From the IMG/VR virus record IMGVR_UViG_3300031413_000001: a stretch of DNA of 64,000 nt. The stretch is one strand, 5' to 3'. The notes beneath the pieces were generated by a model. That model was given only the letters and a program-made list of their open reading frames with translations, was not told the DNA's origin and made no database searches. Source of the DNA: a virus. Its lineage: Duplodnaviria > Heunggongvirae > Uroviricota > Caudoviricetes. Position 1 is the first letter of the stretch; each line of letters opens with the position of its first letter. A program made the translations under genes and the position numbers. Shown one piece after another: positions 23,470 to 40,796 of this stretch.

Positions 23470-24810
23470 TAAACCAAACTGAGTAAATGAAAAGGGTTAA
23501 TGAAAGAATATGATTCTGAAAAACGTGAAGGGCCGAGGGTATAGAATCCCAGAAACTTCATAATCCTCAGATCGCCTTTATCACGCGTATCAAATTTTTG
23601 ACATTCCCTGTAAGGTTTTTTCAAGCAACCTATAGTGCCTCTATAGTGGAGTAATAGTTCTCCCATAGTGCCGCTATAGTGTTGACATGGTGCTTCCATT
23701 GTGGAGGGTCCTGATCCCAGGAGCCCGTGATTTTCCCAAAACTACCCGTGAAATCCGCCGAACAGCCCGTGATTTTGGGCGAGCATGCCTGCGGCTGGGC
23801 GAGCAGTGGAAGGAATTTGCCCGTGAGAGTGGCCCCAAAAGCTGGTCTAGAGTTGAGCAGAGTAGCGCAAAAATTTGAACAGATCGCCCGCAAAACGCCC
23901 GCAGAGTTGGTCTATAGTTGAGTAGAGTTCCCGTATAGTGGAACAAAAGTGCCCGCGAGAACGTGCCCAATAGTGCCTCTATAGTGGAGTAAAGCTGCTC
24001 ATAGAATGCTCACTACCTTAGAAAAACCTCCAACCATGCCCGCGCAAAATGCTAGGCGCGGAGCGCGACTTCAAAGTGGCACTGTACGCTTTTTCATATC
24101 TTTGATCCACCATCAGATAGCCACCCCCATATTACCAATCACAGTAGTGGAAACACCTATAGTAATGCTCTATAGAGAATCCATGAAGTTCCCTATAGCA
24201 TAGACTCTAGTGTAGACTATAGCTGTGACTCATATAGCCAAGACTATAGTAGAAGCCATAGTAGAAGGTACTATAGACAGAGTTCAGACACTATGGATCC
24301 ACTATACACGGACCCTGGACGTCAGGAGTTCACCTAGAGGACGCTCCCAGGAGCGTGGAAAAAGGTGTCAAATCACGTCAAATCTATATGTGCGGCGAAA
24401 GAATTATTATTGATTTAATACCTGTTAACTATGCCAAAACTTGCTCAAAAGTCGCAGATTTGCGTGGCTTTTGACACGCTATAGTGTTCAATAAATGCTC
24501 ATAAAAGCACGGTAATTCAGCTTTATTATGCCATAATAGCCTTTTACTGTGCCTTTCACGTATCGCGCATATCTGTCACCAGAGTTAGCCCAGAGTACAC
24601 CAGAGTGTGCCTCGCTATAGCTATCACTGGAGTTCCTCTATAGTGTGTTCTATAGTGGGAAACCAGAGTTTCCGCTATAGGGAGAGTTTTTCAAAGTCTC
24701 CACTAGGGACAAAATAGTTGAACCCGTGTGTTCTCCTCTATAGGGATAGAGTTGACTCCTCTATAGAGAGTCTCTATAGGGGTGGATATGACTGCCAGTG
24801 TCTCTATAGA
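23470..24810. repeat. Non-coding repeat-rich region, putative origin or genome-terminus/packaging site
   Basis: About 20 CTATAG palindromes, 23-bp direct repeat (23632, 23970), 4x CCCGTGA, AT-rich patch about 24400-24550. Confidence 0.7.
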
Positions 24811-25045
24811 GTATCATGAGGATAGTGAGGATCTGTGTTATCAGACCGTTACCAACCCCTCTAGTGGAAACTTGGTATCGGGTTTTGGTCCTGGGCCCTG
24901 TATGACTCGGTGGTTAGAGGAGCATGGTGGGCGTTATCGCTGCTCCACGGTGTTTGATGCTCAGTATAGTTTCTACCCTGAGGCTCTGGAGATCGAGTTT
25001 CAGGACTCTGCCTGTGCTCTTTTGTTCAAGTTGACTTGGGGTTAA
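24788..25045 (+). CDS. LFKLxW-family protein 1
   Basis: ends FQDSACALLFKLTWG. Confidence 0.85.
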   Translation: MTASVSIEYHEDSEDLCYQTVTNPSSGNLVSGFGPGPCMTRWLEEHGGRYRCSTVFDAQYSFYPEALEIEFQDSACALLFKLTWG

Positions 25046-25068
25046 CTCTTCCTCTATAGAGAGAAAAC

Positions 25069-25290
25069 ATGGAAGTCCGCATCCCTGTTCAGGCCTACAT
25101 GGTAATCGGCACCTATAGTAGTGAGTTGCTTCCCGACATAGAGGAATGGTTTATCAGAAACCGTTTTCACGAGGGTGTTCACTGGTGGTTTGACTTTGAT
25201 TTCAACAGAATTGGGGTGGATTCCCTTGTCTTTGAGAAGCGGAGGATTGCTCAGCTGTTTCACTTGACGTGGTGTACCTTTCCCCTATAG
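25069..25290 (+). CDS. LFKLxW-family protein 2
   Basis: FEKRRIAQLFHLTW. Confidence 0.85.
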   Translation: MEVRIPVQAYMVIGTYSSELLPDIEEWFIRNRFHEGVHWWFDFDFNRIGVDSLVFEKRRIAQLFHLTWCTFPL

Positions 25291-25299
25291 AGCGGAAAC

Positions 25300-25518
25300 A
25301 TGACTGAGTGGCACAACTTCCCTATAGGGATGGAACTTCACATTGCGGTTCAGAACTGGCTACTGGAGCATGTGGGTGCTCAATCGCTATCCAAGCTGGA
25401 CACCACTGGTGAGTGGTTTTGGCGAGTAAACGTTCGCCCTGAGGAACTGGATGACCGCCTGATAGTCAGCATCCGCGACCCCCAGAAGGCCATGCTGTAC
25501 AAGTTGACTTGGGGCTAA
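25300..25518 (+). CDS. LFKLxW-family protein 3
   Basis: IRDPQKAMLYKLTWG. Confidence 0.9.
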   Translation: MTEWHNFPIGMELHIAVQNWLLEHVGAQSLSKLDTTGEWFWRVNVRPEELDDRLIVSIRDPQKAMLYKLTWG

Positions 25519-25541
25519 CTCTTCCTCTATAGAGAGAAAAG

Positions 25542-25793
25542 ATGACCTATAGTGACACCTTCACAGCCAGCGTTCCTCTTGAGAAGGGGTTCTTCACACC
25601 TGCTCTAAAGGGGTGGTTTGTGGCCAATGGTGTGCCCATTGTTGAAGAGGGTTTTCCCGTCATTGGCGAGGGCCTGGGTTGGGACGCTTGGGTAAGTCAA
25701 CGCCCCGTAGAGGGATTGAATAGCGTTCGCTTTCGCTTCAAAGACAAGGGTATCGCCATGTTGTTCAAGCTCACGTGGCATGATTTCCAGTGA
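25542..25793 (+). CDS. LFKLxW-family protein 4
   Basis: FKDKGIAMLFKLTW. Confidence 0.9.
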   Translation: MTYSDTFTASVPLEKGFFTPALKGWFVANGVPIVEEGFPVIGEGLGWDAWVSQRPVEGLNSVRFRFKDKGIAMLFKLTWHDFQ

Positions 25794-26083
25794 GTGAGAT
25801 AGCGGTGTCCTCGGACTTCTTTGAGATCAGGTCCGATCCCCACTATTATGAACTGGACATGGGTTGTGGTATCCATCGTGGACGCCCCTATGTTCGATTG
25901 TGGGATGACCTCTGCACCATCTATGTTCTGCAGGATCCCATGCATCAGTGGTTGGCGGATCGAGATGTCTTCTATGGAATGGACATTGACATAATCAGCG
26001 GCGATTCCCACGTGGACATTCCTGATCAGCGTGCCGCTATGTTGTTCAAGCTGACTTGGTATGGGGTCATTGATGCGGCGTAG
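25790..26083 (+). CDS. LFKLxW-family protein 5
   Basis: IPDQRAAMLFKLTW. Confidence 0.9.
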   Translation: MSEIAVSSDFFEIRSDPHYYELDMGCGIHRGRPYVRLWDDLCTIYVLQDPMHQWLADRDVFYGMDIDIISGDSHVDIPDQRAAMLFKLTWYGVIDAA

Positions 26084-26312
26084 AAAGTTTAGATACCGTG
26101 TACTGATTCCCTTTGAGTCATACCATGGGGAGAGGAATGGCATCTGGGACTGGCTTGAGGCGACCGTTGGGCGGGTCCTAAGTGAGCAGAATCCCTATGG
26201 TCAGTGGACTGGTGGGTTCTCCAAGGACGAGGTCCTTGGAGTTGAATCCTATGAGTTCACCTTTGAAGATCGGAGAACTGCCATACTGTTCAAGCTACTT
26301 TGGGACCACTGA
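26073..26312 (+). CDS. LFKLxW-family protein 6
   Basis: FEDRRTAILFKLLW. Confidence 0.9.
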   Translation: MRRRKFRYRVLIPFESYHGERNGIWDWLEATVGRVLSEQNPYGQWTGGFSKDEVLGVESYEFTFEDRRTAILFKLLWDH

Positions 26313-26578
26313 TGCACAACGTTCACCTGATAGTCAAAGAAGACCACTACGATCCCTCGGGTCCTGGGGTTGTGTGGTGGAATCTGGCCAGCGACTACAA
26401 TGAGGGCTATCGTGCAACCGATGGCTTTTGGGAGTGGATCAACCAACAAGGCGTTGAGGTCGATGAGTGGGATATCATTCAGGACTACGACGATGGCAAT
26501 GATGTGGTGCCCGGCCAGGTGGTCTTCGCGTTCAAGGATCCCGTGATTGCCCTACTGTTCAAGCTAACTTGGGGATGA
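26312..26578 (+). CDS. LFKLxW-family protein 7
   Basis: FKDPVIALLFKLTWG. Confidence 0.9.
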   Translation: MHNVHLIVKEDHYDPSGPGVVWWNLASDYNEGYRATDGFWEWINQQGVEVDEWDIIQDYDDGNDVVPGQVVFAFKDPVIALLFKLTWG

Positions 26579-26796
26579 GCAGCAGCTATAAGGCTCATCA
26601 TGATCACCACGAGATTTGGATCATGAATGGTGTGAGCAAGATGACGCCAGAGATCCGTGCGTGGCTTGATGAGTTCGCGGGCAAAAAGTGGCTGGGCAGT
26701 ATGGGTGCTGGATCTATGAATGGCAATCGGGTAGGCATGATGCATAACTTTTCCTGCAAGGAAACTGCCATGCTCTTTAAATTGACGTGGGGATAA
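26575..26796 (+). CDS. LFKLxW-family protein 8
   Basis: FSCKETAMLFKLTWG. Confidence 0.9.
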   Translation: MSSSYKAHHDHHEIWIMNGVSKMTPEIRAWLDEFAGKKWLGSMGAGSMNGNRVGMMHNFSCKETAMLFKLTWG

Positions 26797-26817
26797 GTCC
26801 ACTCCTATAGTGAGTCT

Positions 26818-27099
26818 ATGTATGAACTCTCGATCATGCTCCCAGGAGCACTTGGAAATTACAATCGCCGACACACTCCTCTTCCCCGAGGATTGGAGTG
26901 GGGAAAGCCCCGAGGATACCAGATAGTTCCAACTGATGAGCTATGCGAGTGGCTTACTTCTTTTACCCGTAGCCACGCTACCATTGAGTTGCTTCATAGA
27001 AACTCCAGTGTTTGGGAGCCTCACCGAGAAGTCATTGGAGTTTCCTTTGGTTTCCTGGAAGCCTCTGATGCCCTCCTGTTTAAGTTGACCTGGTTATGA
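26818..27099 (+). CDS. LFKLxW-family protein 9
   Basis: FLEASDALLFKLTWL. Confidence 0.9.
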   Translation: MYELSIMLPGALGNYNRRHTPLPRGLEWGKPRGYQIVPTDELCEWLTSFTRSHATIELLHRNSSVWEPHREVIGVSFGFLEASDALLFKLTWL

Positions 27100-27335
27100 T
27101 TGGTGTGGAAGTCAGTAACGATCTGATTAAGATGGCAAAGGATGATCTCCACTACGTTCTAAGGGATGATGTGGTCAATTGGCTGCATGTTCATGCAGGG
27201 ACTGGAGATTGTAGGGGAGGGTGGTCTCCTGATTGCGATTGGCTCTGGACCTACAAGAGCGTGGACTACCGAGGGGCAGCCGTGGTGTTCAGTGATGCCA
27301 AGGCCGCCATGTTGTTCAAGTTGACTTGGGTATAG
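27096..27335 (+). CDS. LFKLxW-family protein 10
   Basis: FSDAKAAMLFKLTWV; shares GGWSxxCxWxW with member 14. Confidence 0.9.
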   Translation: MIGVEVSNDLIKMAKDDLHYVLRDDVVNWLHVHAGTGDCRGGWSPDCDWLWTYKSVDYRGAAVVFSDAKAAMLFKLTWV

Positions 27336-27356
27336 TTCTGCTCTATAGAGGGGAAG

Positions 27357-27617
27357 ATGGCTAGACGGCGTCCTCAAACTTCCTGGCTGGTAAGCATTCC
27401 CAGCAGCATCATGCCAAGTACGTGGGCCAATATGAATGGCGATCTCGATTGGGAGATCGACCTGTGGTTTGAGGAACTGGGTCTTGAGTGGCGACGTGAT
27501 TGGTGGATGGCTATGAACCCCTCCTACCGTCACGACCTGGCATTTCAGGATCGCCGGACTGCCCAACTGATTTTTCTTCTCGTGGAAAGCAGGGCTGATG
27601 AAAATACAAGTTCATGA
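27357..27617 (+). CDS. LFKLxW-family protein 11 (degenerate motif)
   Basis: FQDRRTAQLIFLL. Confidence 0.75.
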   Translation: MARRRPQTSWLVSIPSSIMPSTWANMNGDLDWEIDLWFEELGLEWRRDWWMAMNPSYRHDLAFQDRRTAQLIFLLVESRADENTSS

Positions 27618-27909
27618 CATTGGTATCCCCTGGTGGCCCTGGAACTACCGCTATCGAGTGACGGCCATTGGAAAGCCCAAGGTGGATGCCCCCGCGTTGG
27701 GCTATGACAACAACCTCTTTGATCTACAGGATAGGCTGGGCTGGGAACCCAACTACGATTATCTTCGTCCAGATATTCGGAACTGGCTCCATGATAGCTT
27801 GAACTACATGGACTGGACCACCGAGCATCCCAATGATGCTGGCGAGGAGTGTGGGATCCTTTTCCGGCGTCGTAAAGACGTGATGATGTTCAAGCTGGCT
27901 TGGGGCTAA
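27598..27909 (+). CDS. LFKLxW-family protein 12
   Basis: FRRRKDVMMFKLAWG. Confidence 0.9.
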   Translation: MKIQVHDIGIPWWPWNYRYRVTAIGKPKVDAPALGYDNNLFDLQDRLGWEPNYDYLRPDIRNWLHDSLNYMDWTTEHPNDAGEECGILFRRRKDVMMFKLAWG

Positions 27910-28187
27910 TGGATATCGTAGCACATCGTCGTGAGTGCGATAGGCTACTAAAAGCCGGTATCAGAGTGGCGATCGCACCCCAGCATATAATCAATGGTTT
28001 CAATCAGATATCTGAAGAACTGATCCAGTGGCTTCTTGAACGTGGTTACACCACTGGTGGCATCACGCCTGATCCATATAGGATCTGGGCAGGAAGCCGA
28101 CCCAATGCTCGAGAGCCCAACGCTGCGGTAATATTTCATCCCAGTCAAGCACAGGATGCACTCTTGTTTAAGTTGACCTGGGGATGA
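27909..28187 (+). CDS. LFKLxW-family protein 13
   Basis: DALLFKLTWG. Confidence 0.9.
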   Translation: MDIVAHRRECDRLLKAGIRVAIAPQHIINGFNQISEELIQWLLERGYTTGGITPDPYRIWAGSRPNAREPNAAVIFHPSQAQDALLFKLTWG

Positions 28188-28438
28188 ATAGCGTGGTTCC
28201 TATTCCCGACAGCCTCCTATATAGGGACACTCATCCCTACAGTAGTGGATGGTGGATTCGCCAAGACATCTTTCAGTGGTTGACCACCTTTGTGGGACGT
28301 GGAAATCAAGCTGGTGGTTGGTCCGGGGAGTGTGAGTGGATCTGGGTTTACGCATTCGTTGATGGGCAACCCACCAACAATGCAATATCCTTCCAGGATC
28401 CCAAAGCTGCCATGTTGTTCAAACTCACATGGGCGTAG
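28184..28438 (+). CDS. LFKLxW-family protein 14
   Basis: FQDPKAAMLFKLTWA. Confidence 0.9.
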   Translation: MNSVVPIPDSLLYRDTHPYSSGWWIRQDIFQWLTTFVGRGNQAGGWSGECEWIWVYAFVDGQPTNNAISFQDPKAAMLFKLTWA

Positions 28439-28662
28439 AATACAACATCATACTCAGCGACAAGGTTGCCTATAGGGAACACCACTGTACGGAAAGTCCC
28501 TGGGGAAGTTATCAGATATTCAACCCCGAGATAGCCGAATGGCTAGATGCCCGACTCGCTCCCAACAAGTGGGACCACGACATTGACTTTGACACACAGA
28601 ACTGTATCGTGACCATAGAGGACAAGGATGTGGCACTGTTGTTCAAGTTGACCTGGGTATGA
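28429..28662 (+). CDS. LFKLxW-family protein 15
   Basis: IEDKDVALLFKLTWV. Confidence 0.9.
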   Translation: MGVEYNIILSDKVAYREHHCTESPWGSYQIFNPEIAEWLDARLAPNKWDHDIDFDTQNCIVTIEDKDVALLFKLTWV

Positions 28663-29027
28663 TTGAGTGGACGTTCGTGCAGCTCTATGGCCTCCGGTAT
28701 TTTTCCCGGCAAGGTTTTAGCTCAGCCACTTCACCAGTTCATCGCTGGCGACCTGATGGTCGACCGGCAACCTTTGGCGTCGCCATTGCCGACCATGTGT
28801 TCGAGTGGCTAGATGCCAATTGCAAGGGTAGGTGGTACCACGTAACCAATCGTCAATTCACCACCATTGAACAGATAACTGTTACCCGCGATGATCAGGA
28901 AGAGCTTCGCTTGGCTCGCAAACTCAATCTCGTGACTGATGAGATGCGTGACAAGTTCCGCAGCATCCGCGAGATTGCCTTTGAATTGAAGAGCGACGCG
29001 CTCATGTTCAAGCTGAGTATTGCCTGA
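28659..29027 (+). CDS. LFKLxW-family protein 16
   Basis: FELKSDALMFKLSI. Confidence 0.85.
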   Translation: MIEWTFVQLYGLRYFSRQGFSSATSPVHRWRPDGRPATFGVAIADHVFEWLDANCKGRWYHVTNRQFTTIEQITVTRDDQEELRLARKLNLVTDEMRDKFRSIREIAFELKSDALMFKLSIA

Positions 29028-29257
29028 TGGGCATTCGTGTTCACTGTGATCTTTCAAAAGCCTGCGAGTGGCTTGAGGCAAGAAATCGACGGGGTGGGTA
29101 TTGGAAAGTTCGCCCCGAAGTTCTTGACTTCATGGATAGTCGAGGGATTCCTTTTCGATCCAATGCCAGCCTCAGTGAGCAGGACTGGTCAGTGGTATTT
29201 CCCGATGAGTTTGCCAGGGATGCCATGTTGTTCAAACTAACGTGGGGTGGAAAGTGA
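29027..29257 (+). CDS. LFKLxW-family protein 17
   Basis: DAMLFKLTWGG. Confidence 0.9.
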   Translation: MGIRVHCDLSKACEWLEARNRRGGYWKVRPEVLDFMDSRGIPFRSNASLSEQDWSVVFPDEFARDAMLFKLTWGGK

Positions 29258-29514
29258 GCGACCTGTGGGGCGACACGCTGAGCAAGAGCATGGAGTGGTA
29301 CAACTCCTGCACGTTTGTCCGCGTTCCAACAACTAGCTTGAATGATGCTCTTTCCTGGTGCGTGGAAAAGAAGGGCCTGAGCGGCCACGATCGACTGTAT
29401 AGTGAGGACAGAGTTGGTTGGGGTTGGACTTCTGGTCCAACCAGCGACGTGTGGGTCTTTTACTTTCAGAACGATCCTGATTTTGCCATGCTGTTCAAAT
29501 TGACTTGGGCGTGA
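29254..29514 (+). CDS. LFKLxW-family protein 18
   Basis: FAMLFKLTWA. Confidence 0.9.
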   Translation: MSDLWGDTLSKSMEWYNSCTFVRVPTTSLNDALSWCVEKKGLSGHDRLYSEDRVGWGWTSGPTSDVWVFYFQNDPDFAMLFKLTWA

Positions 29515-29534
29515 ATACTCTATAGGGAGGATTA

Positions 29535-29834
29535 ATGATCACCTTTCCTCTCACCGACAAACAGATCTACAGCCTGTCTGAGGACACCTCAAATCCTTGG
29601 GTAGCGGTCCTGGATGCGATGAAGACCTGGGCCAAGGAGATGAATCTTCAGTATATCCCCAGTGGATCCACGTTGAAAGAATTGCCTCCTGGGCATTGGT
29701 GTGTGAAAAGCTACAATTACGACCAGAGGCGACGTGAAGGTGGCGGTGGCATCTGGAATCACCGGATGATCTGCTTCAACGATGCGGATGCCAAACACGC
29801 CATGATATTCAAACTTCGTTGGGGCGGGCAGTGA
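29535..29834 (+). CDS. LFKLxW-family protein 19
   Basis: HAMIFKLRWGG. Confidence 0.9.
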   Translation: MITFPLTDKQIYSLSEDTSNPWVAVLDAMKTWAKEMNLQYIPSGSTLKELPPGHWCVKSYNYDQRRREGGGGIWNHRMICFNDADAKHAMIFKLRWGGQ

Positions 29835-30115
29835 AGCAGCAAGTCTTTTGGGTTCCCAGCGATATAGACCTCCCAAAGGTAACTGTCGTGACACTCCACG
29901 ATCCCAGTGGTGAGAAGATTGCCGATTCAGTCATGTGGGCAGGAGAGCGCCTGGGACCCAGCAACGGCAACGGTGGGGATATCAGAGGCAAGAACTGGGA
30001 CTTCACCCCTGGATGGCTGGCGCAGTTTGGTAGCAAGGATCTACATTTTTACTTTGGTGACGAAGTGGATCGTGATACCATCGTCTTGTTCAAACTTACA
30101 TTTGGTGGTCGATGA
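29831..30115 (+). CDS. LFKLxW-family protein 20
   Basis: IVLFKLTFGG. Confidence 0.9.
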   Translation: MKQQVFWVPSDIDLPKVTVVTLHDPSGEKIADSVMWAGERLGPSNGNGGDIRGKNWDFTPGWLAQFGSKDLHFYFGDEVDRDTIVLFKLTFGGR

Positions 30116-30426
30116 CTAGCGCGACTGTTGAGCTGCCCTGGGAGCGACTGGTTGATTGGGGGATGGGAATCACCCTAAAGCAGGAAGTCCTGGACTGGCT
30201 CCAGGCAAACATTGGCCTGGGTGATAGTCGTTGGTGGAACAGTGTTGTGGAATTGGTCTTTCACCTTGACCACTGCGAGAACGATGGGCCGGGTTGTATC
30301 TCCTCAGGAGAGCAATGCGTGGGTCATGAGGACTGGGGCTGGTCGATCGGTACAAGGAGTGGGAAAGGCTTCTTTGTGTTCCGGGATCCTGCCCACGCGG
30401 TCATGTTCAAGTTGACTTGGGCATGA
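30112..30426 (+). CDS. LFKLxW-family protein 21
   Basis: KGFFVFRDPAHAVMFKLTWA. Confidence 0.9.
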   Translation: MTSATVELPWERLVDWGMGITLKQEVLDWLQANIGLGDSRWWNSVVELVFHLDHCENDGPGCISSGEQCVGHEDWGWSIGTRSGKGFFVFRDPAHAVMFKLTWA

Positions 30427-30656
30427 GGGAAGTTGAACTATCGCTGGAGCGCCTTCGCGAGATCAACGAAGAGATCAACAAGGTAAAGGCAGTTCAGACC
30501 TATCTGATAGAGTGGTGCGTGGAACATGTCAAGGAACGACCTATCAGCACCATCGTGAGCAAGCCCGCAGTTTATAATAGTGTGGAGTTTAGGGGAATCA
30601 TGTTTGAGTTCCGTGAGCCCCAAAATGCCATGATGTTCAAATTGAGGTGGGCATAA
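30423..30656 (+). CDS. LFKLxW-family protein 22
   Basis: FREPQNAMMFKLRWA. Confidence 0.9.
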   Translation: MREVELSLERLREINEEINKVKAVQTYLIEWCVEHVKERPISTIVSKPAVYNSVEFRGIMFEFREPQNAMMFKLRWA

Positions 30657-30892
30657 TGCCCTTGATGTCAGTGGTCATGCAAACTCATCCCGTAATCGTC
30701 AGTATGCCCATGGATCAGAGCGACGATCACTGGATTGAAATAGATGATTGGATCTCCAGCAAAAACCTTGATGTCATTTGGAGTTCCAACGTGGACACCT
30801 CGGGTATCGCACCATTTCCATTCCTGCGCCACTTCTGTTTTAAGACGGAAGACCGGGAGGCAGCCATGCTGTTCAAACTTACATGGCTATAA
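30656..30892 (+). CDS. LFKLxW-family protein 23
   Basis: AAMLFKLTWL. Confidence 0.9.
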   Translation: MPLMSVVMQTHPVIVSMPMDQSDDHWIEIDDWISSKNLDVIWSSNVDTSGIAPFPFLRHFCFKTEDREAAMLFKLTWL

Positions 30893-31101
30893 CTGTGGAA
30901 ATCTCCGATCGCGGAGATTGGAATACCGTCTATAGGGAAGCATCCAATTGGATGGTGGACCACTTTCCAGATCTTTGCCTTCCAGTCACAGATCCCAAGC
31001 GGGTCTATAATGGTTGGGACGTGTCTTTTGGTCTTGACACCATACAGTTCTATTTTGAAGATCCTCAGGTTGCTATGTTGTTCAAGTTGACTTTTGCCTA
31101 A
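30883..31101 (+). CDS. LFKLxW-family protein 24
   Basis: FEDPQVAMLFKLTFA. Confidence 0.9.
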   Translation: MAITVEISDRGDWNTVYREASNWMVDHFPDLCLPVTDPKRVYNGWDVSFGLDTIQFYFEDPQVAMLFKLTFA

Positions 31102-31121
31102 CCTGGCTTTACGATACAGGT

Positions 31122-31430
31122 ATGGAAACGCACCACTCCTGGAAATCCTTTATCGCCCAGGGGCGAGCATGGCGTGCCGTGGCCGAGTGGTCCAGTGAGT
31201 TCTTTGATCGAATTGAAGACGAGCAATATGACGACTATGATGTCTATCCCCTGAGGGAAGATGTCAGAGCATGGTTGGATAAGTTGCCTCGTGGTCGATG
31301 GTGGGTTGAAAGTCCCGATGGCACTGGTCTCATAGACATCACGGGCCCACGATGGATGCGTCCCATCTACTTTCGTTTTCGTCGAGACCTAATGCTGTTC
31401 AAGTTGAGGTGGGACCATGGTGCGAAATAA
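31122..31430 (+). CDS. LFKLxW-family protein 25
   Basis: DLMLFKLRW. Confidence 0.9.
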   Translation: METHHSWKSFIAQGRAWRAVAEWSSEFFDRIEDEQYDDYDVYPLREDVRAWLDKLPRGRWWVESPDGTGLIDITGPRWMRPIYFRFRRDLMLFKLRWDHGAK

Positions 31431-31641
31431 AGACTTTCCCAACAAGGTAACCATCCGGCTTCACCGCTTGGAGTTTCAGGCTCTTCTAGCTTGGCTTCAT
31501 GCAGCTGGGCATGAGTTGCGCGTCACGATGAAGTTTGGTGACAACCAGCACAAGAGCGCGGATCCTGACCACCTTCAGCAGGACATCTTGTTCAAAGATC
31601 GAAAGGACGCCATGTTGTTCAAGCTGGCGTGGTATCGATGA
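31417..31641 (+). CDS. LFKLxW-family protein 26
   Basis: FKDRKDAMLFKLAW. Confidence 0.9.
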   Translation: MVRNKDFPNKVTIRLHRLEFQALLAWLHAAGHELRVTMKFGDNQHKSADPDHLQQDILFKDRKDAMLFKLAWYR

Positions 31642-33050: not shown

Positions 33051-33286
33051 TGCCCAACGCCTATATTCGCATGATCCAAGCCGACTATCCCCACGAGGTT
33101 GGTCTTCCAGAGTATGACATGACGCTTGAGGCAAGGGCGGATGCCTGGCTTCACATGAACGCCGTTGATTACATGGATTACTTTCAAGAAGTTGGCGACC
33201 TCAGGGTATATTGTTTCCGGGAGGCTTCATGGGCGACCATGTTCAAGTTGAGCTTTTATGGCCTGAACTCTTCGGAGAACCCGTGA
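33050..33286 (+). CDS. LFKLxW-family protein 32
   Basis: FREASWATMFKLSF. Confidence 0.85.
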   Translation: MPNAYIRMIQADYPHEVGLPEYDMTLEARADAWLHMNAVDYMDYFQEVGDLRVYCFREASWATMFKLSFYGLNSSENP

Positions 33287-33564
33287 ATTACGAGGTAGCA
33301 GTCCACTTTGCCAACAACGGTGTCTTTGGTCCCAAGCGACTCAAGACCCGTCTTCTAACCGAAAAAGTAGAACGGTGGCTAGACGCCCATGGTGGTGATT
33401 GGGGGCTGGTAAATTGGTATCGTCCCTATGTAGGTCATGGGGAATTTGGTCCCGAGCCGGGCATGGAGCACGTGGGGCGGATATTTCAGTTCGGAGAGCG
33501 CCGCACTGCCCAGTTGTTTCTTTTATGTTGGAATGCTTCAGGACACGCCAAAGAAGCTTCATAG
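33283..33564 (+). CDS. LFKLxW-family protein 33
   Basis: FGERRTAQLFLLCW. Confidence 0.8.
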   Translation: MNYEVAVHFANNGVFGPKRLKTRLLTEKVERWLDAHGGDWGLVNWYRPYVGHGEFGPEPGMEHVGRIFQFGERRTAQLFLLCWNASGHAKEAS

Positions 33565-33810
33565 ATACCAATTTAAGTAAAACCGCTGTGCGGCACTGCG
33601 ATTTTGAAAATATACGCAGAAACGATCCTGCTGCACTATTAGAAGATAATCCCATCCACGAATGCCATAAGAGAGCAGCACCTCTGTCAGCTGATCTACC
33701 AATATGTCTCTTTGGGATAGGTTGTGGAAGAAGTGACCACGAAAGCTGTAGGGCAGTTCCATGTAGTGGCTGAAGTAGTATTCAAGCCTGCGGTCTAGAT
33801 ACTGAAACAT
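33559..33810 (-). CDS. LFKLxW-family protein 34 (divergent)
   Basis: FQNRSAAQRFYLNW. Confidence 0.75.
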   Translation of the reverse strand: MFQYLDRRLEYYFSHYMELPYSFRGHFFHNLSQRDILVDQLTEVLLSYGIRGWDYLLIVQQDRFCVYFQNRSAAQRFYLNWYL

Positions 33811-34025
33811 AGTTTGAAATATACAGCCTTACTCAAGTCTGTAAACCACACTTCATAGATTCCAGTCTCAAAACTCTCACGACCAACAATCCAGTCCTCA
33901 TATTCCTGCCATTTTTGTTCCAAGAGCCAGAGGCGAACTTGGTAATGGTGCATGGAACTCTTGACCATAGGCAACTGCACCCTGATCGATCTGGTTTGCC
34001 GGGGATATTCAAAAAGGTCATCCAC
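33795..34025 (-). CDS. LFKLxW-family protein 35
   Basis: FTDLSKAVYFKLCF. Confidence 0.85.
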   Translation of the reverse strand: MDDLFEYPRQTRSIRVQLPMVKSSMHHYQVRLWLLEQKWQEYEDWIVGRESFETGIYEVWFTDLSKAVYFKLCFSI

Positions 34026-34029
34026 AGCC

Positions 34030-34060
34030 TATTTAATGGGTGGAAAATCTCCTTAAATAT
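34030..34060. promoter_or_regulatory. Back-to-back late promoters
   Basis: TAAATA on minus (34030-34035) and plus (34054-34059). Confidence 0.6.
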
Positions 34061-34085
34061 TCTGTACCCCAAAAGGAGATCGATC

Positions 34086-34526
34086 ATGACCCAGCTTACA
34101 CCGCATTTTAGTTTGGCCGAGATGACCGTTACCGGAACGGGTATCAAGAATGTTCCCAACGCCGCGCAGTTGGCAAACTTGACTCACACTGCTCAGATGA
34201 TGGAAAAGGTCCGTGCAATTCTTGGCACACCAATCAGCGTCAATAGTGGCTTCCGTTGTGATGCAGTAAACCGTGCCGTTGGTGGCGTGGTAACTTCCGC
34301 TCACAGCTTTGGCTTTGGTGTTGACTTCGTGAGCCCTGACTTTGGAACGCCCTATGAGGTTTGTGCCGCGCTGATCAAGGGTGGTCTAAAGTTCGACCAG
34401 CTCATTCACGAAAAGCGCCGTTGGGTCCACATTGGCTTTGGTCTCAAGGGAGGCATCAGCCACCGTCAGCAGGTCTTGACTCTTCCACCAGCAGGCGGCC
34501 GTTACCTGCCTGGTCTGGTCAAGTAA
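34086..34526 (+). CDS. Peptidase M15 family (Zn D-Ala-D-Ala-peptidase fold) endolysin
   Basis: HFSLAEM, SGFRC..VNRAVGG, SAH-x4-VD, FDQLIHE..WVHI; SD AGGAG. Confidence 0.9.
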   Translation: MTQLTPHFSLAEMTVTGTGIKNVPNAAQLANLTHTAQMMEKVRAILGTPISVNSGFRCDAVNRAVGGVVTSAHSFGFGVDFVSPDFGTPYEVCAALIKGGLKFDQLIHEKRRWVHIGFGLKGGISHRQQVLTLPPAGGRYLPGLVK

Positions 34527-34952
34527 TTACTTCGTAGTTTTTTCGGGAGGCTGAAGGGACCAAGTGCCCTTCAGCTTTCTACTCTTGGCCTTGACGAGCG
34601 TTCTCGTAATACCAAACGCCACTGGCGGAACCTCTGGCTTCTTTGCGCCACCCCATGCCAGCTTGAACATCGTGACATTCTTCATATCACGAAACCAGAT
34701 CTTAGCTTGCCTTCCAACCGCGAAGTCGCTGGCTTGTCCACACTTTTCCAGCTTGTAACGGCCTCCACTTTCCTGGAGCCAATCCCTTATGGGTTTTGCC
34801 CAGCGGTATTCCTCGAAGCCACCAGTCCATCGTGCGCTCGAGACATCACCCTGATTGAGCTTTCGCTGATAGAACTCTTCCAGCCATTCTCCCTGAACAC
34901 TGATATAGGGAAGTCCCAGCCATTTGCGCCACTTGACTTCTTCAATCAGCAT
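34527..34952 (-). CDS. LFKLxW-family protein 36 with capsid-like C-terminal tail
   Basis: VTMFKLAWGG then FGITRTLVKAKSRKLKGTWSL. Confidence 0.85.
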   Translation of the reverse strand: MLIEEVKWRKWLGLPYISVQGEWLEEFYQRKLNQGDVSSARWTGGFEEYRWAKPIRDWLQESGGRYKLEKCGQASDFAVGRQAKIWFRDMKNVTMFKLAWGGAKKPEVPPVAFGITRTLVKAKSRKLKGTWSLQPPEKTTK

Positions 34953-35232
34953 TCTGTCCTCCAAAGGTCAGCTTGAACAACATGGCCAGGTTGTCGTTTT
35001 CTTTGATCAAAAAGAAAGCGCGAAAGCTGCTGGGGTTGACGTATGCGTCCCAAAGCACGTCTTCCATATAGATACGAGTAGCATCAAAGGCCACATCGCC
35101 ATGTTCGTTGGTACGGGGCTTGCTTTTCCATCCGGGCTCACCCAGACGCTCTGCGAGCCATCGGCCAGCGCGATCTATGCACTCGGCGTTGACTGGCACC
35201 TCAATGGTGTGAATGGTAGCTTCTAGATCCAT
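34942..35232 (-). CDS. LFKLxW-family protein 37
   Basis: LAMLFKLTFGG. Confidence 0.9.
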   Translation of the reverse strand: MDLEATIHTIEVPVNAECIDRAGRWLAERLGEPGWKSKPRTNEHGDVAFDATRIYMEDVLWDAYVNPSSFRAFFLIKENDNLAMLFKLTFGGQNAD

Positions 35233-35507
35233 GTCAGCTTGTATAGCACGGCAGCTTTGGAATCATAGAGTCGAATCATAAGCCTCCAGGAATAGACTTG
35301 TTCGCCATACTGACTGAGATCCGTGGAGGCATGAACAAACCTGCCATTGTAGGAGAAGTTGTGCTGGTCTAGCCAGTCCTTCATTTCCTGATCGAATAAA
35401 CGACTGGCATCATCCTCAGCCCGCCAACTGAGATCCCGATAGAGCTTTTTATTAGGAAGCGGAAAATCCCAATAGCTAGGCCCAGGTGAGTTTGAACAAC
35501 ATTGCAT
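35223..35507 (-). CDS. LFKLxW-family protein 38 (start uncertain)
   Basis: LYDSKAAVLYKLTWI. Confidence 0.8.
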   Translation of the reverse strand: MQCCSNSPGPSYWDFPLPNKKLYRDLSWRAEDDASRLFDQEMKDWLDQHNFSYNGRFVHASTDLSQYGEQVYSWRLMIRLYDSKAAVLYKLTWI

Positions 35508-35724
35508 CGGAAACTCTCTTAAAGTGAAATTCCAAACTTGTCATCCCATAATCTTCGAACATCCAACATTCGCCATGTTCCCAGTCCACACCCCATGCGC
35601 CAATGTTTTCTTGGATCCAGTCCCAGCACTCGTCCGAGAGACTGTCGTCGAAGCCGTGTTCATCTATAATGCAGACGCGGCTCTTGGGTATCACGACCCG
35701 AACGCCGTCAAGCCTCCTCGCCAT
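35476..35724 (-). CDS. LFKLxW-family protein 39
   Basis: FKRVSDAMLFKLTWA. Confidence 0.9.
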   Translation of the reverse strand: MARRLDGVRVVIPKSRVCIIDEHGFDDSLSDECWDWIQENIGAWGVDWEHGECWMFEDYGMTSLEFHFKRVSDAMLFKLTWA

Positions 35725-36073
35725 CGCCCACCTGTGGAATTGCACTCGTGATCGTCAGTGGAATATAGGGGCAGTAAAAGGCCGTGATCTCCGGCATCAC
35801 TACTATCTGGATATCGGCGTGATCGTGCCAGGCTAACTTGAACAATTGAAAGACACTGGGGTCCTCAATCCAGATAGCCCTGCCTTTATCCATCCATGCC
35901 GTTCCCCATCGACCGGGACAGGTGTTGTCCATCCATTCGGCAAGAAAAGGTAAGATGCGGGGATTGGCACGAATATGCGTGGGCACTTCAGCATCAATGG
36001 CTTCCCAGGCAAAGAACATTTCTCCATCGCTGGGAACAATATACCACTGATGATGTTTCTCGATGAGTTTCAT
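35708..36073 (-). CDS. LFKLxW-family protein 40 with capsid-like C-terminal tail
   Basis: FQLFKLAW then TAFYCPYIPL. Confidence 0.85.
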   Translation of the reverse strand: MKLIEKHHQWYIVPSDGEMFFAWEAIDAEVPTHIRANPRILPFLAEWMDNTCPGRWGTAWMDKGRAIWIEDPSVFQLFKLAWHDHADIQIVVMPEITAFYCPYIPLTITSAIPQVGDGEEA

Positions 36074-36510
36074 CAGCCGCACGCCAACTTAAACATCACC
36101 GCGTGTTCCTTGCTGTAGAAGGTCCACGTACACTCATAGACCGCAGAGGGAACAGGTTGAAGCTGTGGTATTGGATATCCATTACTGGAGTAATGTTGGG
36201 GCGAGTAATTGTTATAGTTGATTCCTGTTTGAAGACTTCCAACCAGATGAGCGTGTTCTCGAACCTGGGTGTTGTATTCCTCAATCTTCATGATATCCCT
36301 GAGATTATCCTGATATTCAGGCTCAACGGATCTCAGATGACGAAGGCAATCATTCTCGCCCATCCACCGAAATGCCGTGAGGAGTTTTTCCTCGCCGGGG
36401 ATCATAACATCAAAGATTGTGCCATCGTCATTCTGAAATGTGAAGCGGCTACGAGTTGCTGCTTTCAACGGACCAGAGAATTTAACGTCGAAGTGTTCCA
36501 GGATACGCAT
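36073..36510 (-). CDS. LFKLxW-family protein 41
   Basis: FYSKEHAVMFKLACG. Confidence 0.85.
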   Translation of the reverse strand: MRILEHFDVKFSGPLKAATRSRFTFQNDDGTIFDVMIPGEEKLLTAFRWMGENDCLRHLRSVEPEYQDNLRDIMKIEEYNTQVREHAHLVGSLQTGINYNNYSPQHYSSNGYPIPQLQPVPSAVYECTWTFYSKEHAVMFKLACG

Positions 36511-36525
36511 TAACCCATTATGGGG

Positions 36526-36759
36526 TCAGCGGCCTCCAAAAGTCAATTTGAACAAGACAGCCGTGGCATTATCGGGAAGGTTGAACATCACCTGCCATCG
36601 ACTGTGATCGCGACCCAACATCCAGGTGACTTTGTCACTGACTGGCGGTGCGTTGTCGGCAAGCCAGTCCATGATGTCTGGATTGACGTGGACCTTCACC
36701 GATCCATTGCTTGAAGAATGGGCACAGGTCTTAAAGGGCAGAACGACGTTGACGCTCAT
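36526..36759 (-). CDS. LFKLxW-family protein 42
   Basis: TAVLFKLTFGG. Confidence 0.9.
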   Translation of the reverse strand: MSVNVVLPFKTCAHSSSNGSVKVHVNPDIMDWLADNAPPVSDKVTWMLGRDHSRWQVMFNLPDNATAVLFKLTFGGR

Positions 36760-37091
36760 GACCAAGTCAGCTTGAATAACATGGCGTGTTGCTTTTCCCG
36801 GAATACCAGTATCGCTCCAAGATCTGGACTATTGCCCACTTTATAGCCAGGAGCATATTGTTCCATCCAGGGATAAAGCTCACTGGCACGCCACTTGCTA
36901 TCAAAATGATCTCGGAAAAGCTGCTGGAGGTTTTCCTGTGGGCTGTTGCGGGCTTCCTGATCTTTTCGGGTAAGACGTTCCTCAGGGGTCTCGCGACCGC
37001 GCAGAACAAAGGAATTCTCAGGAATACACTTCTCGACGATTACTTTGAGTGGATTACCGCAATCCCAGACCATTTTATAGCTAGTCTGCAA
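36756..37091 (-). CDS. LFKLxW-family protein 43
   Basis: FREKQHAMLFKLTWS. Confidence 0.9.
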   Translation of the reverse strand: MQTSYKMVWDCGNPLKVIVEKCIPENSFVLRGRETPEERLTRKDQEARNSPQENLQQLFRDHFDSKWRASELYPWMEQYAPGYKVGNSPDLGAILVFREKQHAMLFKLTWS

Positions 37092-37359
37092 TCAACTTGC
37101 TCCTGATCTCCGCAGTCCGCTGGGAGATAAGGTCGATCATCTTCATGGTGACCTGTACGTCGTTGTCCACCAGCCACCGGAGATCGTCCTCGTGGCTCTT
37201 TTCCAGATGACGGTGCATTGCTTCAATGCCTTCTGGCGGAGGACCCATTCGAGCGCAGACCTGATCGGCCAGCTGATGAAAGAGCTCCGCTCGCTTGATG
37301 ATCGAGACGTAAAAGAGATTTCGCATCACACGCTGGTCGGCCACTACAATCCTCCCCAA
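37081..37359 (-). CDS. Hypothetical helical protein inside the array (no motif)
   Basis: Fills the gap between members 43 and 44. Confidence 0.6.
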   Translation of the reverse strand: MGRIVVADQRVMRNLFYVSIIKRAELFHQLADQVCARMGPPPEGIEAMHRHLEKSHEDDLRWLVDNDVQVTMKMIDLISQRTAEIRSKLIAD

Positions 37360-37598
37360 GTCAGTTTGAATAACATGACCTTATCCAGATCACAACCCTC
37401 TAGAAATGATATCATCACGCTATCTGTGCTGTCGTTGAATCCCCACACGGTGTTCATGGACACCACAGTTGCCAGCGGTTCGGCTGTGACATCATAGAGC
37501 TTTCGCTCCACTCCATCATCGTCCTTGACTAGCTTCCAGGGAAACCTATCTGTGGGTATGAAGATGGTTGTGATGATCACATTATCCCGAATAGTCAT
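37344..37598 (-). CDS. LFKLxW-family protein 44
   Basis: VMLFKLTWGG. Confidence 0.9.
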   Translation of the reverse strand: MTIRDNVIITTIFIPTDRFPWKLVKDDDGVERKLYDVTAEPLATVVSMNTVWGFNDSTDSVMISFLEGCDLDKVMLFKLTWGGL

Positions 37599-37882
37599 CG
37601 ACCACCCCATGCAAGTTTGAACATCATCGCCTTCGCGGGGTCTTTGAACTTGAAGTGAAGGAATTTTGCCGGACCGTTCTGGCGATCACCAGTTGCCAGA
37701 TACATGGGATCAATAGAACTCTCGCTGGCCCTCAGATAAAAGGCAGCTTTCCGGCTCCATGTATAATCCGTCATATCGCTGGCCTGTTGGCCTACATTCT
37801 GCACCAGCCAGTCGTGCATGACGAGGCGGAGGCCGTAGCCATCCCAAATCTCATCATTGACCTTGATGCAGATGTGCGTCAC
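37595..37882 (-). CDS. LFKLxW-family protein 45
   Basis: FKDPAKAMMFKLAWGG. Confidence 0.9.
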   Translation of the reverse strand: MTHICIKVNDEIWDGYGLRLVMHDWLVQNVGQQASDMTDYTWSRKAAFYLRASESSIDPMYLATGDRQNGPAKFLHFKFKDPAKAMMFKLAWGGR

Positions 37883-38160
37883 CGACCACCCCAAGAAAGT
37901 TTGCAGAGCATGGCATGACTGGGTCGATAGAAGAAGATAAAGAGACCCTTGTTATCCTCATCCTTGGTGGTGGTCCAAAGAATACCCAGCGGTCCGGCCG
38001 TGTCGTGTAGCCACTTTTGAAAGTCGGCGGTTGGATTGCGATGCCGTATGTAGCTGAATCCTTTGGACGTGGAAACATTCACACTCTCAAATGCCGGACT
38101 GTCATAGGATATGAATACCCTATGGCCCTGTTCAACAAGTGGATCCGCTAGACGTTTCAT
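37879..38160 (-). CDS. LFKLxW-family protein 46
   Basis: KGLFIFFYRPSHAMLCKLSWGG. Confidence 0.9.
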   Translation of the reverse strand: MKRLADPLVEQGHRVFISYDSPAFESVNVSTSKGFSYIRHRNPTADFQKWLHDTAGPLGILWTTTKDEDNKGLFIFFYRPSHAMLCKLSWGGR

Positions 38161-38167
38161 AGAACCG

Positions 38168-38194
38168 TGTTAGCACCAGAACTTCCAGTGTCAA
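38168..38194 (-). promoter_or_regulatory. Early-type promoter, near-leaderless
   Basis: TTGACA-ctggaagttctggtg-CTAACA, 7 nt before ATG. Confidence 0.8.
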
Positions 38195-38195
38195 G

Positions 38196-38486
38196 CTATT
38201 TGAATGTGAGCTTGAACATCAGAGCGTGGTTTCTATCTTCAAAGCAATAGCAGATGTATTTGTTACTGGTCACCGCATTGTGGTACCAACTCCCCTCCTC
38301 GGGGGATTCTGGATCACGAAAATAGAAGCTGTTGTACTGGTCATCACCAACGTTGTTGGCAACCAGCCACTCATCAATGTCATCACGAAGAACCTGAGTG
38401 CTCTCACACCAGATGCTGCCAGGCAATTTCAGATATACGATGTGATAGTTGTCCTCGCCATTGGACTCTTCTGACAAATTGAACAT
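38196..38486 (-). CDS. LFKLxW-family protein 47
   Basis: FEDRNHALMFKLTF. Confidence 0.9.
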   Translation of the reverse strand: MFNLSEESNGEDNYHIVYLKLPGSIWCESTQVLRDDIDEWLVANNVGDDQYNSFYFRDPESPEEGSWYHNAVTSNKYICYCFEDRNHALMFKLTFK

Positions 38487-38520
38487 CGCTCCTCCTACCT
38501 TTTGGGTAGCAGGAGTGCTT

Positions 38521-38814
38521 TCAAAAGTTCAATTTATAAAACCACAACAATTTGAACAACGCTGCTTCATTGCGATTACGAAACGCAAACGTGTAAGCGG
38601 TTGTTTTCCTTGGATACGTCTGGTATTTGTTCTTCTGATCCAAGAAGAAACCATCTTCATACTGGTGTACAAACCAATCAGTGGATTGGGGACCATCATC
38701 ATATAACCAATTGATGGAGTCAATCAGACGATCATATATGGGATCCTCGTGCCAGACACCAGGCACGGTCACGTGGTAGGGGAGAGCAGCCAATCGCTGC
38801 TGGGCATTCTTCAT
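38521..38814 (-). CDS. LFKLxW-family protein 48
   Basis: FRNRNEAALFKLLW. Confidence 0.9.
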   Translation of the reverse strand: MKNAQQRLAALPYHVTVPGVWHEDPIYDRLIDSINWLYDDGPQSTDWFVHQYEDGFFLDQKNKYQTYPRKTTAYTFAFRNRNEAALFKLLWFYKLNF

Positions 38815-39029
38815 CCCCATACCAACTTGAAGGCAACGGCCTTTCGAGCATCATCAAAGATAAACCGCCAACCTAATGGATCACCACCGGGCTTATCACA
38901 GATGATCTCCAGCGAGTAATCAAAATTCTTATTCCAGCTTTGATCAGTCAGCCACTGGAATAATTCAAAATCATTACCTTCGCGGGGGTAGATATCAACG
39001 ATCTTGCAGAATGGATACTCGGTACTCAC
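38811..39029 (-). CDS. LFKLxW-family protein 49
   Basis: FDDARKAVAFKLVWG. Confidence 0.9.
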   Translation of the reverse strand: MSTEYPFCKIVDIYPREGNDFELFQWLTDQSWNKNFDYSLEIICDKPGGDPLGWRFIFDDARKAVAFKLVWG

Positions 39030-39235
39030 ATGCCACCCAGTGTGAGTTTGACGATCAGGGCCTTGTTGGCATCGTGAAACCAGAAGCTAAGATAGTCCAG
39101 CTTTCCGCCGTGCATGTCAATCTGCCAGTCACGTTCCGCTTTGAGCTTGTTTTCATGCAGCCAGTCGATCGAATTGTCGCCATAGGGATCCTTGGCCCAG
39201 CTGATCTTTACCTCGTAGATGAATTGCTTTCTCAC
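39026..39235 (-). CDS. LFKLxW-family protein 50
   Basis: FHDANKALIVKLTLGG. Confidence 0.85.
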   Translation of the reverse strand: MRKQFIYEVKISWAKDPYGDNSIDWLHENKLKAERDWQIDMHGGKLDYLSFWFHDANKALIVKLTLGGM

Positions 39236-39543
39236 ACGCCGCTCCAGGCTAACTTGAACAGCATGGCTTTCTTGGGATCCGCGAAGCCAAAGTGAGCGCA
39301 GCCATCAATGCGGAGTATCCGCCAGGAACCTTTCCAGCCCCACTTGCTGCTGTAGATCATTTCCTTTCCCACGTGGGCTAACAACCAGGCTTTTACCTCG
39401 TCGCTGGCCCGCATAACAAAGGGTTCGTCGTTCCATGCCCAGATGTGGTCATCGGATTTAACAAAGGTATGACTCACCGTCCGCCCCACGTCATCTTGAA
39501 GCGGACGGCTTCGCTGGACAATTTGAACAAAAATATCAGACAT
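39232..39543 (-). CDS. LFKLxW-family protein 51
   Basis: FADPKKAMLFKLAW. Confidence 0.9.
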   Translation of the reverse strand: MSDIFVQIVQRSRPLQDDVGRTVSHTFVKSDDHIWAWNDEPFVMRASDEVKAWLLAHVGKEMIYSSKWGWKGSWRILRIDGCAHFGFADPKKAMLFKLAWSGV

Positions 39544-39806
39544 GCAGAGTTATCATCTTTCCCCACTTGGGTAAAGGAGGTCAGCGATGCCGGTTCCCTC
39601 TTGACTGCGAAGCCCTGTTTGATATGGGCCCTGCACCAAGTTTCCAGAAACAACAGAACGGATGTGGACTTTAGATCGTCCAGAGGTGTGGCCATGTCCT
39701 CCCGTTCTTGATCGAACAGGTGAAACATGGTTCCCATCGTGATTGTAACAGGTGTCCAGCTTTCCAATTGCATCTCACGGTTGACCCTAGATAAGGCTTT
39801 GAACAT
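39474..39806 (-). CDS. LFKLxW-family protein 52
   Basis: FKLSSEAVRFKMTWGG. Confidence 0.85.
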   Translation of the reverse strand: MFKALSRVNREMQLESWTPVTITMGTMFHLFDQEREDMATPLDDLKSTSVLLFLETWCRAHIKQGFAVKREPASLTSFTQVGKDDNSACLIFLFKLSSEAVRFKMTWGGR

Positions 39807-40290
39807 GAGTACCTCCGAAAGTCAACTTGAACAACATGGCGATCCTGGCATCCTTGAACTCAAACCCCGTGGCGTTGAGGACTCCAGTCTCGGTTATATA
39901 GGGACCATAGCTGTAATCACCGGAGTTTGCCAAGTCATGCTCCTTGAACCATTTGGCAATGTCGGTGTTAGCTAGAGTTCCTTCACTGTAACGGATTCCT
40001 CTGACGATCACCACATGCTTGTGGGAGGGATTCCAGTCCGTGAAGTGGTTTTTGAATTTGGTACCCAGGACTTCATCGTTCCAGTGGAACAACGACCAGT
40101 GACCATCAATCGAAGCCCAGAGACGAAGGGGGCGGGTTTCTAGGGCATGGCTGTCAACGACCTCCTGGTCCCTTGTTCCCGCCCAAGCGTCATGGTCGTC
40201 CAGCCACTGGTCAAGTTGCTTTCCCAGCTTGGCCGCGAAGTTACCATAATCGATAACACAATACTGACGAGTGGAGATACAGACTAGCAT
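39787..40290 (-). CDS. LFKLxW-family protein 53 (tandem two-domain)
   Basis: WNDEVLGTKFKNHF and FKDARIAMLFKLTFGG. Confidence 0.85.
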   Translation of the reverse strand: MLVCISTRQYCVIDYGNFAAKLGKQLDQWLDDHDAWAGTRDQEVVDSHALETRPLRLWASIDGHWSLFHWNDEVLGTKFKNHFTDWNPSHKHVVIVRGIRYSEGTLANTDIAKWFKEHDLANSGDYSYGPYITETGVLNATGFEFKDARIAMLFKLTFGGTHVQSLI

Positions 40291-40550
40291 CAGCGCCAAC
40301 CTCCAAAGGTCAGCTTGAAGTGAAGGGCGGTACCACGATCGCGAAAGGCCCAGGCCATCGTGACCTTCTTGCTGTAACCGGGCTTGCCGGTCTGGTGCTC
40401 AAAGCAAACAAAGTCCTTTTGGTAGACTAGGTTGCTTTCCTTGATCCACGCAATCATTTCCTCGCTGCGGGCCAACTGACGATCAGTGGGCAGATCAGGC
40501 AGTTCCAGCGCGGTGGGAAATTGGCGGTACTTGCTGTCGATCTGTTTCAT
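40290..40550 (-). CDS. LFKLxW-family protein 54
   Basis: FRDRGTALHFKLTFGG. Confidence 0.9.
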   Translation of the reverse strand: MKQIDSKYRQFPTALELPDLPTDRQLARSEEMIAWIKESNLVYQKDFVCFEHQTGKPGYSKKVTMAWAFRDRGTALHFKLTFGGWR

Positions 40551-40557
40551 AGAACTG

Positions 40558-40584
40558 GCTTAGCACCGCTCTACTCTATGTCAA
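40558..40584 (-). promoter_or_regulatory. Early-type promoter overlapping the upstream stop codon
   Basis: TTGACA-N15-CTAAGC, 7 nt before ATG. Confidence 0.75.
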
Positions 40585-40796
40585 CCAAATCGTAGCTTGA
40601 AGTGCATGGCGAGTTGTCGATGCTCGTCGCTGAAGCCAACGCTACGCTGGCCAAAGGTGGTGAAGACCTTTCGACTCTCTAGATTGTTCTTGAGGATCTG
40701 AGCCCACAGCCAGGAAAAGGCATCCGTGTAGTCGGTAATACAACATGCCAGTTCTACACGGTGCGGCCATTGCTGTTCAAAGGTGGGCTCTACCAA
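40581..40796 (-). CDS. LFKLxW-family protein 55
   Basis: LAMHFKLRFG. Confidence 0.85.
   Translation of the reverse strand: MVEPTFEQQWPHRVELACCITDYTDAFSWLWAQILKNNLESRKVFTTFGQRSVGFSDEHRQLAMHFKLRFG

Follow-up and report, generated by a model that had tools for sequence, protein, structure and literature searches.

The window analysed here is the full 64,000-nucleotide (nt) stretch of IMG/VR virus record IMGVR_UViG_3300031413_000001, which belongs to the class Caudoviricetes, and its central feature is an array of 55 small paralogous genes within 16 kb, all of which end in a C-terminal LFKLxW-type motif or a clear variant of it. Six-frame translation placed 33 consecutive family genes on the plus strand (24788-33564, the left arm) and 22 on the minus strand (33559-40796, the right arm, convergent on the left one); these counts and ends are those of the original prediction, which had been made from the letters alone. 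The 22 genes of the right arm were confirmed, but the arm is broken by a Peptidase M15 endolysin gene (34086-34526, plus strand), whose position is identical in all relatives seen, and by a minus-strand gene for an 87-amino-acid (aa) protein (37081-37344) that has no Pfam match; neither is a family member. Likewise, the array extends as predicted from 24788 to 40796, but the family does not end there, since five more family frames form a small second cluster on the plus strand (54303-56374) and a further minus-strand member (63867-63998) is truncated by the window end. Within the second cluster, two adjacent family genes (55535-56374) are split by a stop at 55966, and a relative carries a single 282-aa two-domain frame instead (L019:1502-2350). 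Coordinates without an L-prefix are window positions throughout, and genome-wide figures were taken from the relative G002 (416,714 bp), whose array is 92-93% identical to that of the window.

The members are 69-167 aa long, with a median of 88, and 50 of the 56 aligned proteins (the 55 array members together with the product of 55184-55504) fall in the range of 70-120 aa that had been given for most of them. Pairwise identity among the paralogs averages 19% in the family alignment and reaches 41% at most; yet they form one family, as leave-one-out hidden Markov models (HMMs) recovered every member at 10-58 bits (E of at most 0.03 over 886 frames), and the family profile matched 107 real frames of G002 as against a single reversed decoy frame. 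This recovery and the contrast with the decoys argue that the array is not a product of chance. The description of two motifs in each member was too strict: the exact C-terminal motif is present in 33 of the 55, and the exact helix pattern in only 5, whereas a looser form of the helix pattern is found in 39. Most array genes overlap or abut the next gene, and few have a Shine-Dalgarno sequence; codons for a Gly-Gly tail were considered as such a sequence and set aside as a general device, since it is clear in no more than 3 of 55 genes.

As judged from comparative sequence analysis, the paralogs are mutually diverged and each is a stable ortholog kept by selection. Against three relatives, the ratio of nonsynonymous to synonymous substitution (dN/dS) was 0.14, 0.17 and 0.16 outside the motif and 0.07-0.13 inside it, the most distant comparison being near saturation. 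With such values and such stable orthologs, the word hypervariable, by which the genes had first been described, does not apply in the sense of ongoing variation. Gene order is equally conserved: the arrays of L002, L008, L073 and L076 are colinear with that of the window, and in the distant relative L004, whose orthologs are 26-72% identical, 38 reciprocal best hits were obtained with a rank correlation (rho) of 0.998 and the same orientation in 38 of 38. The proposal that conserved 3' ends reshuffle or invert the array was thus not borne out, inversion between the arms was rejected, and no wholesale shuffling was seen. Recent local duplication was rejected as well, because similarity between adjacent genes does not exceed that between randomly chosen pairs (p 0.15), so that these are not fresh duplicates; taken together with the colinearity of distant orthologs, this indicates that the array is old.

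The part of the crossover proposal that did stand concerns the gain and loss of whole genes in frame. Near-identical strains differ by whole genes, and in four such insertions or deletions (indels) the junctions have overlaps of 26-32 nt inside the motif codons, all in the plus-strand arm. The member at 26575-26796 is absent from L073 and L076 (32-nt overlap) and that at 27096-27335 from L002 and L076 (28 nt), three members at 27909-28662 are jointly absent from L076 (30 nt), and the middle member of this trio (28184-28438) is alone absent from L073 (26 nt). The first member of the trio is alone absent from L002, with the junction at the start codon rather than the motif, and the first array gene was lost in L076 via the CTATAG promoter repeat described below. 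Selection alone would also favour junctions at gene ends, but in two of the indel cases the surviving gene bears the motif codons of its neighbour, and these chimeric tails and the overlaps point to homology-driven exchange over such selection alone; we therefore infer that the junctions arose by homologous crossover. Orthologs of four of the affected genes are present in L004, which favours loss, with regain as the alternative. Motif crossovers would in this way add or remove single genes and leave the frames intact. Strain-specific insertions of non-family genes encoding 151-159 aa were also observed directly after a motif (L002:8138-9060 and L073:14379-14834).

The motif codons appear to be under constraint as DNA, too. 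They vary synonymously, as was noted at the outset, but the corollary that the constraint acts mainly on the protein does not hold fully: the motif Phe is TTC in 40 of 45 genes as against 34 of 70 Phe residues in strand 3, and the invariant Leu is TTG in 18 of 45 genes as against 4 of 28 Leu residues in helix 1. In two of three comparisons, orthologs have diverged at synonymous sites about as much within the motif as in the rest of the gene, so that recombinational homogenisation explains this codon bias as well as selection does. A more specific signal is found where an intergenic CTATAG lies behind a gene, since in 6 of 6 such cases TTGAC is present in the Leu-Thr motif codons 15-18 nt upstream (Fisher p 1.3e-4). 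The first of these internal promoter-like sites lies at 25031-25059, and sites of the same design lie at 25264-25290, 25504-25532, 26782-26810, 27321-27348 and 29500-29525, all on the plus strand; overall, seven promoter-like sites have a TTGAC -35-like box in motif codons. Ahead of the array itself, TTGAC-N17-CTATAG (24752-24779, plus strand) ends 8 nt before the first start codon in the leaderless manner, and the promoter-like sites generally end 7-10 nt ahead of a start codon, as in leaderless messages. These array sites are close to the sigma-70 consensus of Sinorhizobium meliloti, CTTGAC-N17-CTATAT (PMC2873474).

TTGAC-N14-TGCTA is a second pattern, with 50 occurrences in G002 as against 4 for a control pattern, and 9 in the window as against 0.3 expected. 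Three of its sites are in the array, at 32733-32756 (plus strand), where the -35 box falls in the motif codons of gene 32463-32747, and on the minus strand at 40561-40584, ahead of gene 40290-40550, and at 38171-38194, ahead of gene 37879-38160; the others are at 1480, 6789, 7465, 12813 and 13552 (minus strand) and 55501 (plus strand). Both kinds of site may act as promoters, and probably early ones. A generic Escherichia coli promoter scan gave no excess (23 vs 20.4), terminator-like sites were no more frequent than expected (15 vs 15.1), and a T7-type polymerase that could serve the CTATAG sites was sought through PF00940 with no match, although the controls gave no match either. The palindrome CTATAG is also concentrated in the region before the array (23630-24779), which lacks long open reading frames (ORFs) and holds about 20 copies in 1.15 kb; 34 of the 52 copies in G002 are at this locus, the only such cluster there, and the cluster is kept in L004. 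It is possibly an origin or a protein-binding array.

A motif that recombines and carries expression signals could belong to a filler or selfish repeat, the proteins of which do little and pad a headful genome. The DNA-level roles of the motif and the frequency of indels would fit, and genome growth by tandem duplication has been proposed for phages G and 121Q (PMC5646251). However, dN/dS is about 0.14 in the variable part of the genes, all 44 compared L002 orthologs are intact frames, and neighbouring genes do not look like fresh duplicates, and we regard this explanation as very improbable.

The original prediction of a constant core with a variable surface agrees with the structural models. 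For member 28429-28662, AlphaFold gave a predicted local distance difference test (pLDDT) score of 92 and the order strand, inserted hairpin, helix, strand, strand, helix, and the array members are accordingly modelled as ferredoxin-like domains minus strand 4. The absence of strand 4 is suggested by a comparison with a two-domain relative in G002 (L020:1451-2152; 209-210 aa), which is conserved in many phages at 43-71% identity and is predicted to form the complete four-strand fold: there, strand 4 comes right behind the motif, yet the stop lies within 7 residues of the motif in 49 of 55 array members. This two-domain form is a candidate for the family founder. In the last helix, Ala and Leu are conserved in 139 of 139 proteins and Lys in 138 of 139, in an alignment that was selected for the motif, and Trp is likewise invariant in the core; the loops and the alternate strand-3 positions (60 and 62) vary. 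The conserved Ala, Lys and Leu residues of the helix may line an exposed groove left by the absent strand.

Structure searches with the single domain returned generic matches only (KH, ACT and secretin N domains, Z up to 5.4), and nothing in PDB or BFVD reached E 0.001 with Foldseek; the top BFVD rows were uncharacterised phage proteins. With the strand-helix-strand-strand-helix core that the family shares with RRM, ACT, KH and secretin N domains, the members might be regulators binding RNA or single-stranded DNA, in which a minimal RRM/KH-like module reads its own target through the sheet face of each paralog and steers translation or RNA decay. KH domains tie for first with the single domain (Z 5.4), the two-domain relative has tandem RRM proteins (PUF60, PABP) among its top Foldseek matches (E 5e-4 to 8e-4), and the members are rich in Trp (4.8%). 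Nevertheless, ferredoxin-fold, tandem RRM and ACT proteins score about equally with the two-domain relative, the resemblance is confined to fold-level scores (Z 5-8) with no sequence match, strand 4 is absent from the modelled array member, the isoelectric point (pI) is below 6.5 in 32 of 56 proteins, and neither RRM nor KH is among the Pfam families listed for 139 members. The aromatic residues of RNP1 and RNP2 are not conserved, positions 60 and 62 being variable, and since RNP motifs are missing, the family is not RRM; on these grounds, a regulatory role seems unlikely. Tandem two-domain forms, including the gene pair of the second cluster that is fused in a relative, also raise the idea of a mixed assembly, a lattice or oligomer that the paralogs would build in the infected cell by polymerising together via the conserved helix. 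The domains of the two-domain relative are not packed against each other with confidence, however (predicted template modelling score, pTM, 0.48), and strains persist after losing one to three members, which leaves such an assembly highly unlikely.

Two members of the right arm carry excerpts of the major capsid protein. The C-terminal tail of member 34527-34952 (34527-34640, minus strand) corresponds to a gp23-type capsid segment (Pfam Gp23, E 0.003), and that of member 35708-36073 (35732-35791, minus strand) to a different segment with a YCPY motif, which is weak alone (E 0.014) and clearer in the L008 ortholog; in both tails, nonsynonymous change (pN) is well below synonymous change (pS) across four genomes. 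In all retrieved DNA and proteins, every capsid-profile match but one lies in a family frame; many of these proteins came from the family search, and the enrichment also holds among locus frames. Four capsid segments are represented, fused before, after or inside the family domain in several phages, and for no core protein but the capsid did excerpts rise above reversed-sequence noise. Just past the window end, a G002 gene (L021:2401-2898) encodes a family domain with 44 residues of capsid sequence behind it (residues 72-115), which presumably correspond to the T4 Gol region, and a similar excerpt is found on a non-family protein of Sinorhizobium phage Phosso (L015:1390-2076).

Capsid segments on family members could reflect a role in the virion. 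T4 internal proteins carry a capsid-targeting sequence, and the motif might be such a tag, so that members would be packaged and injected or would tune procapsid assembly. The recurrence of four different capsid excerpts, and of no other core protein, would be in keeping with this, as would the position of the array, which is flanked by tail, baseplate and sheath genes. On the other hand, the promoter-like sites are host-type and do not follow a late pattern, and the distant members gp247, gp274 and gp275 of phage PA5oct have no virion mass-spectrometry flag while their neighbours are flagged, although small proteins may be missed; we consider a virion role quite unlikely. Segments of capsid protein are also sensed by host defences, as in T4 Gol/Lit (PMC3014915) and in Avs7 and Dsr1 (PMC13581612), and because such sensors are known, it is plausible by analogy that the excerpts act as decoys against capsid-sensing defence. 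Conserved gp23 segments thus recur in both settings; in the known systems, the triggers sit in the real capsid protein, and decoy excerpts are not described in PMC3014915 or PMC13581612.

The carrier of the array is an uncultured gp23-type jumbo phage. The gp23-type capsid protein encoded by G002 is 86% identical to that of Phosso and 69% identical to that of Agrobacterium phage Atu_ph07, which makes an alphaproteobacterial host likely. About 100 family copies (94-107) are present in G002, some 52 of them in the array and the remainder in smaller clusters, and Phosso, the nearest cultured relative, has at least 50, which are dispersed. PA5oct gave 3 matches and Atu_ph07 about 5 weak ones, and there was none in GAP32, XbC2, JNE01, Lu11 or one Vibrio jumbo phage (for GAP32, XbC2 and JNE01, at E 0.01). 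A search with the family profile yielded 1,985 clusters at 50% identity, with no useful match in Pfam, PHROGs, PDB sequences or the ESM Atlas and no description found in the literature. By these searches, the proteins would make up a very large phage family that is undescribed as far as we found, in line with the original statement that no function was known for it. Nor did PDB, Pfam or PHROG yield a characterised anti-defence inhibitor, solved or curated, as a match in sequence or structure, an absence that is compatible with such a role all the same. One frame of more than 500 aa in G002, which is truncated by the locus end (L018:1933-3501), has a weak family-domain match at its end and no PHROG match. 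Clp protease genes adjoin family members in PA5oct (L046:20350-22188) and Phosso (L030:21295-22698), which may be a coincidence of accessory regions and is compatible with an adaptor role. Elsewhere in the window, the tail sheath (45044-46246) is closer to those of Pseudomonas phages Lu11 and HRDY3 (38-40%) than to that of Phosso (27%, partial) despite the 86% capsid identity between Phosso and the relative; L002 and L073 have an extra gene of 431-444 aa within the group of tail-fibre genes that immediately precedes the array, where the window has 22299-23469; and no tRNA genes were found in the window.

Taken together, these observations suggest to us, with about an even chance of being right, that the array is an early library of small binders, which share a docking helix, have member-specific targets and serve host takeover or counter-defence. 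In this scheme, the gp23-type jumbo phage would have kept the library for a long time, and the host sigma-70 polymerase would transcribe it from promoters of the leaderless type, several of them with motif codons as the -35 box; its genes would be translationally coupled and expressed early. The last helix with its invariant Ala, Lys and Leu, together with the strand-4 groove, would form a docking site common to every member, and each member would reach its own host target through the variable hairpin, loops and sheet face; these two steps are the least certain. The library might then serve takeover or counter-defence across hosts, and the few members with a capsid excerpt would use it to display a decoy or competitor peptide. 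A bolder version, which we hold to be doubtful, pictures about 100 one-domain adaptors on one shared partner, bound via the last helix and the open groove and each with a different host target, in which the 30 bases of the docking helix double as crossover site and promoter box, so that the library could edit itself one gene at a time with no need for a recombinase cassette, and in which some members show capsid excerpts that blunt capsid-sensing immunity.

Several points weigh against a library of binders. No partner, target or activity has been identified for any member. Conservation of the helix could have a purely structural reason or be due in part to its DNA roles, and strong purifying selection would suit fixed jobs better than an arms race. 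The promoter pattern, which suggests that the array is expressed, gives no date for expression. Finally, capsid excerpts are found on only 2 of 55 array members.

Known phage systems share some of these features. Tandem arrays of genes with 'very similar' copies have been reported in phage G and coliphage 121Q (PMC5646251), and phage G has about 35 copies of a zinc ribbon (PMC7824862). More than 30 related small genes of unassigned function in a giant phage are common to those arrays and to the 55 genes described here, which differ in belonging to another family and fold, in their low mean identity, in a copy number of about 100 per genome, and in their arrangement in two convergent arms, with one-to-one orthologs across the clade. 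Among Asteriusvirus/Mimasvirus phages, JNE01, GAP32 and XbC2 gave no match to the family, and 121Q and phage G were not searched. In the PeSL cassettes of the T4-type phages RB49 and phi1, an intergenic promoter and stem-loop with sigma-70-like promoters allows recombination to shuffle gene modules (PMC2839356). Repeats with sigma-70-like promoters among small genes and whole-gene gain and loss between repeats are found here as well, the mechanism being read from the junctions; however, the paralogs' own coding 3' ends are the repeat, for which reason the array is not PeSL, and there is no terminator excess and all passengers belong to one family. Invertible arrays of the shufflon type also differ, since neither an alternative orientation nor an alternative order was seen in the relatives.

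What is new here is a conserved tail that would combine a protein element with a crossover site and, for some of the genes, with a promoter box, in an undescribed, very large family. The array shows how a jumbo genome can change by single genes when the conserved tail of a protein itself encodes the repeat for recombination and the promoter box. With its many family copies and a laboratory-tractable host, Phosso on S. meliloti makes the function of jumbo-phage paralog arrays directly testable.

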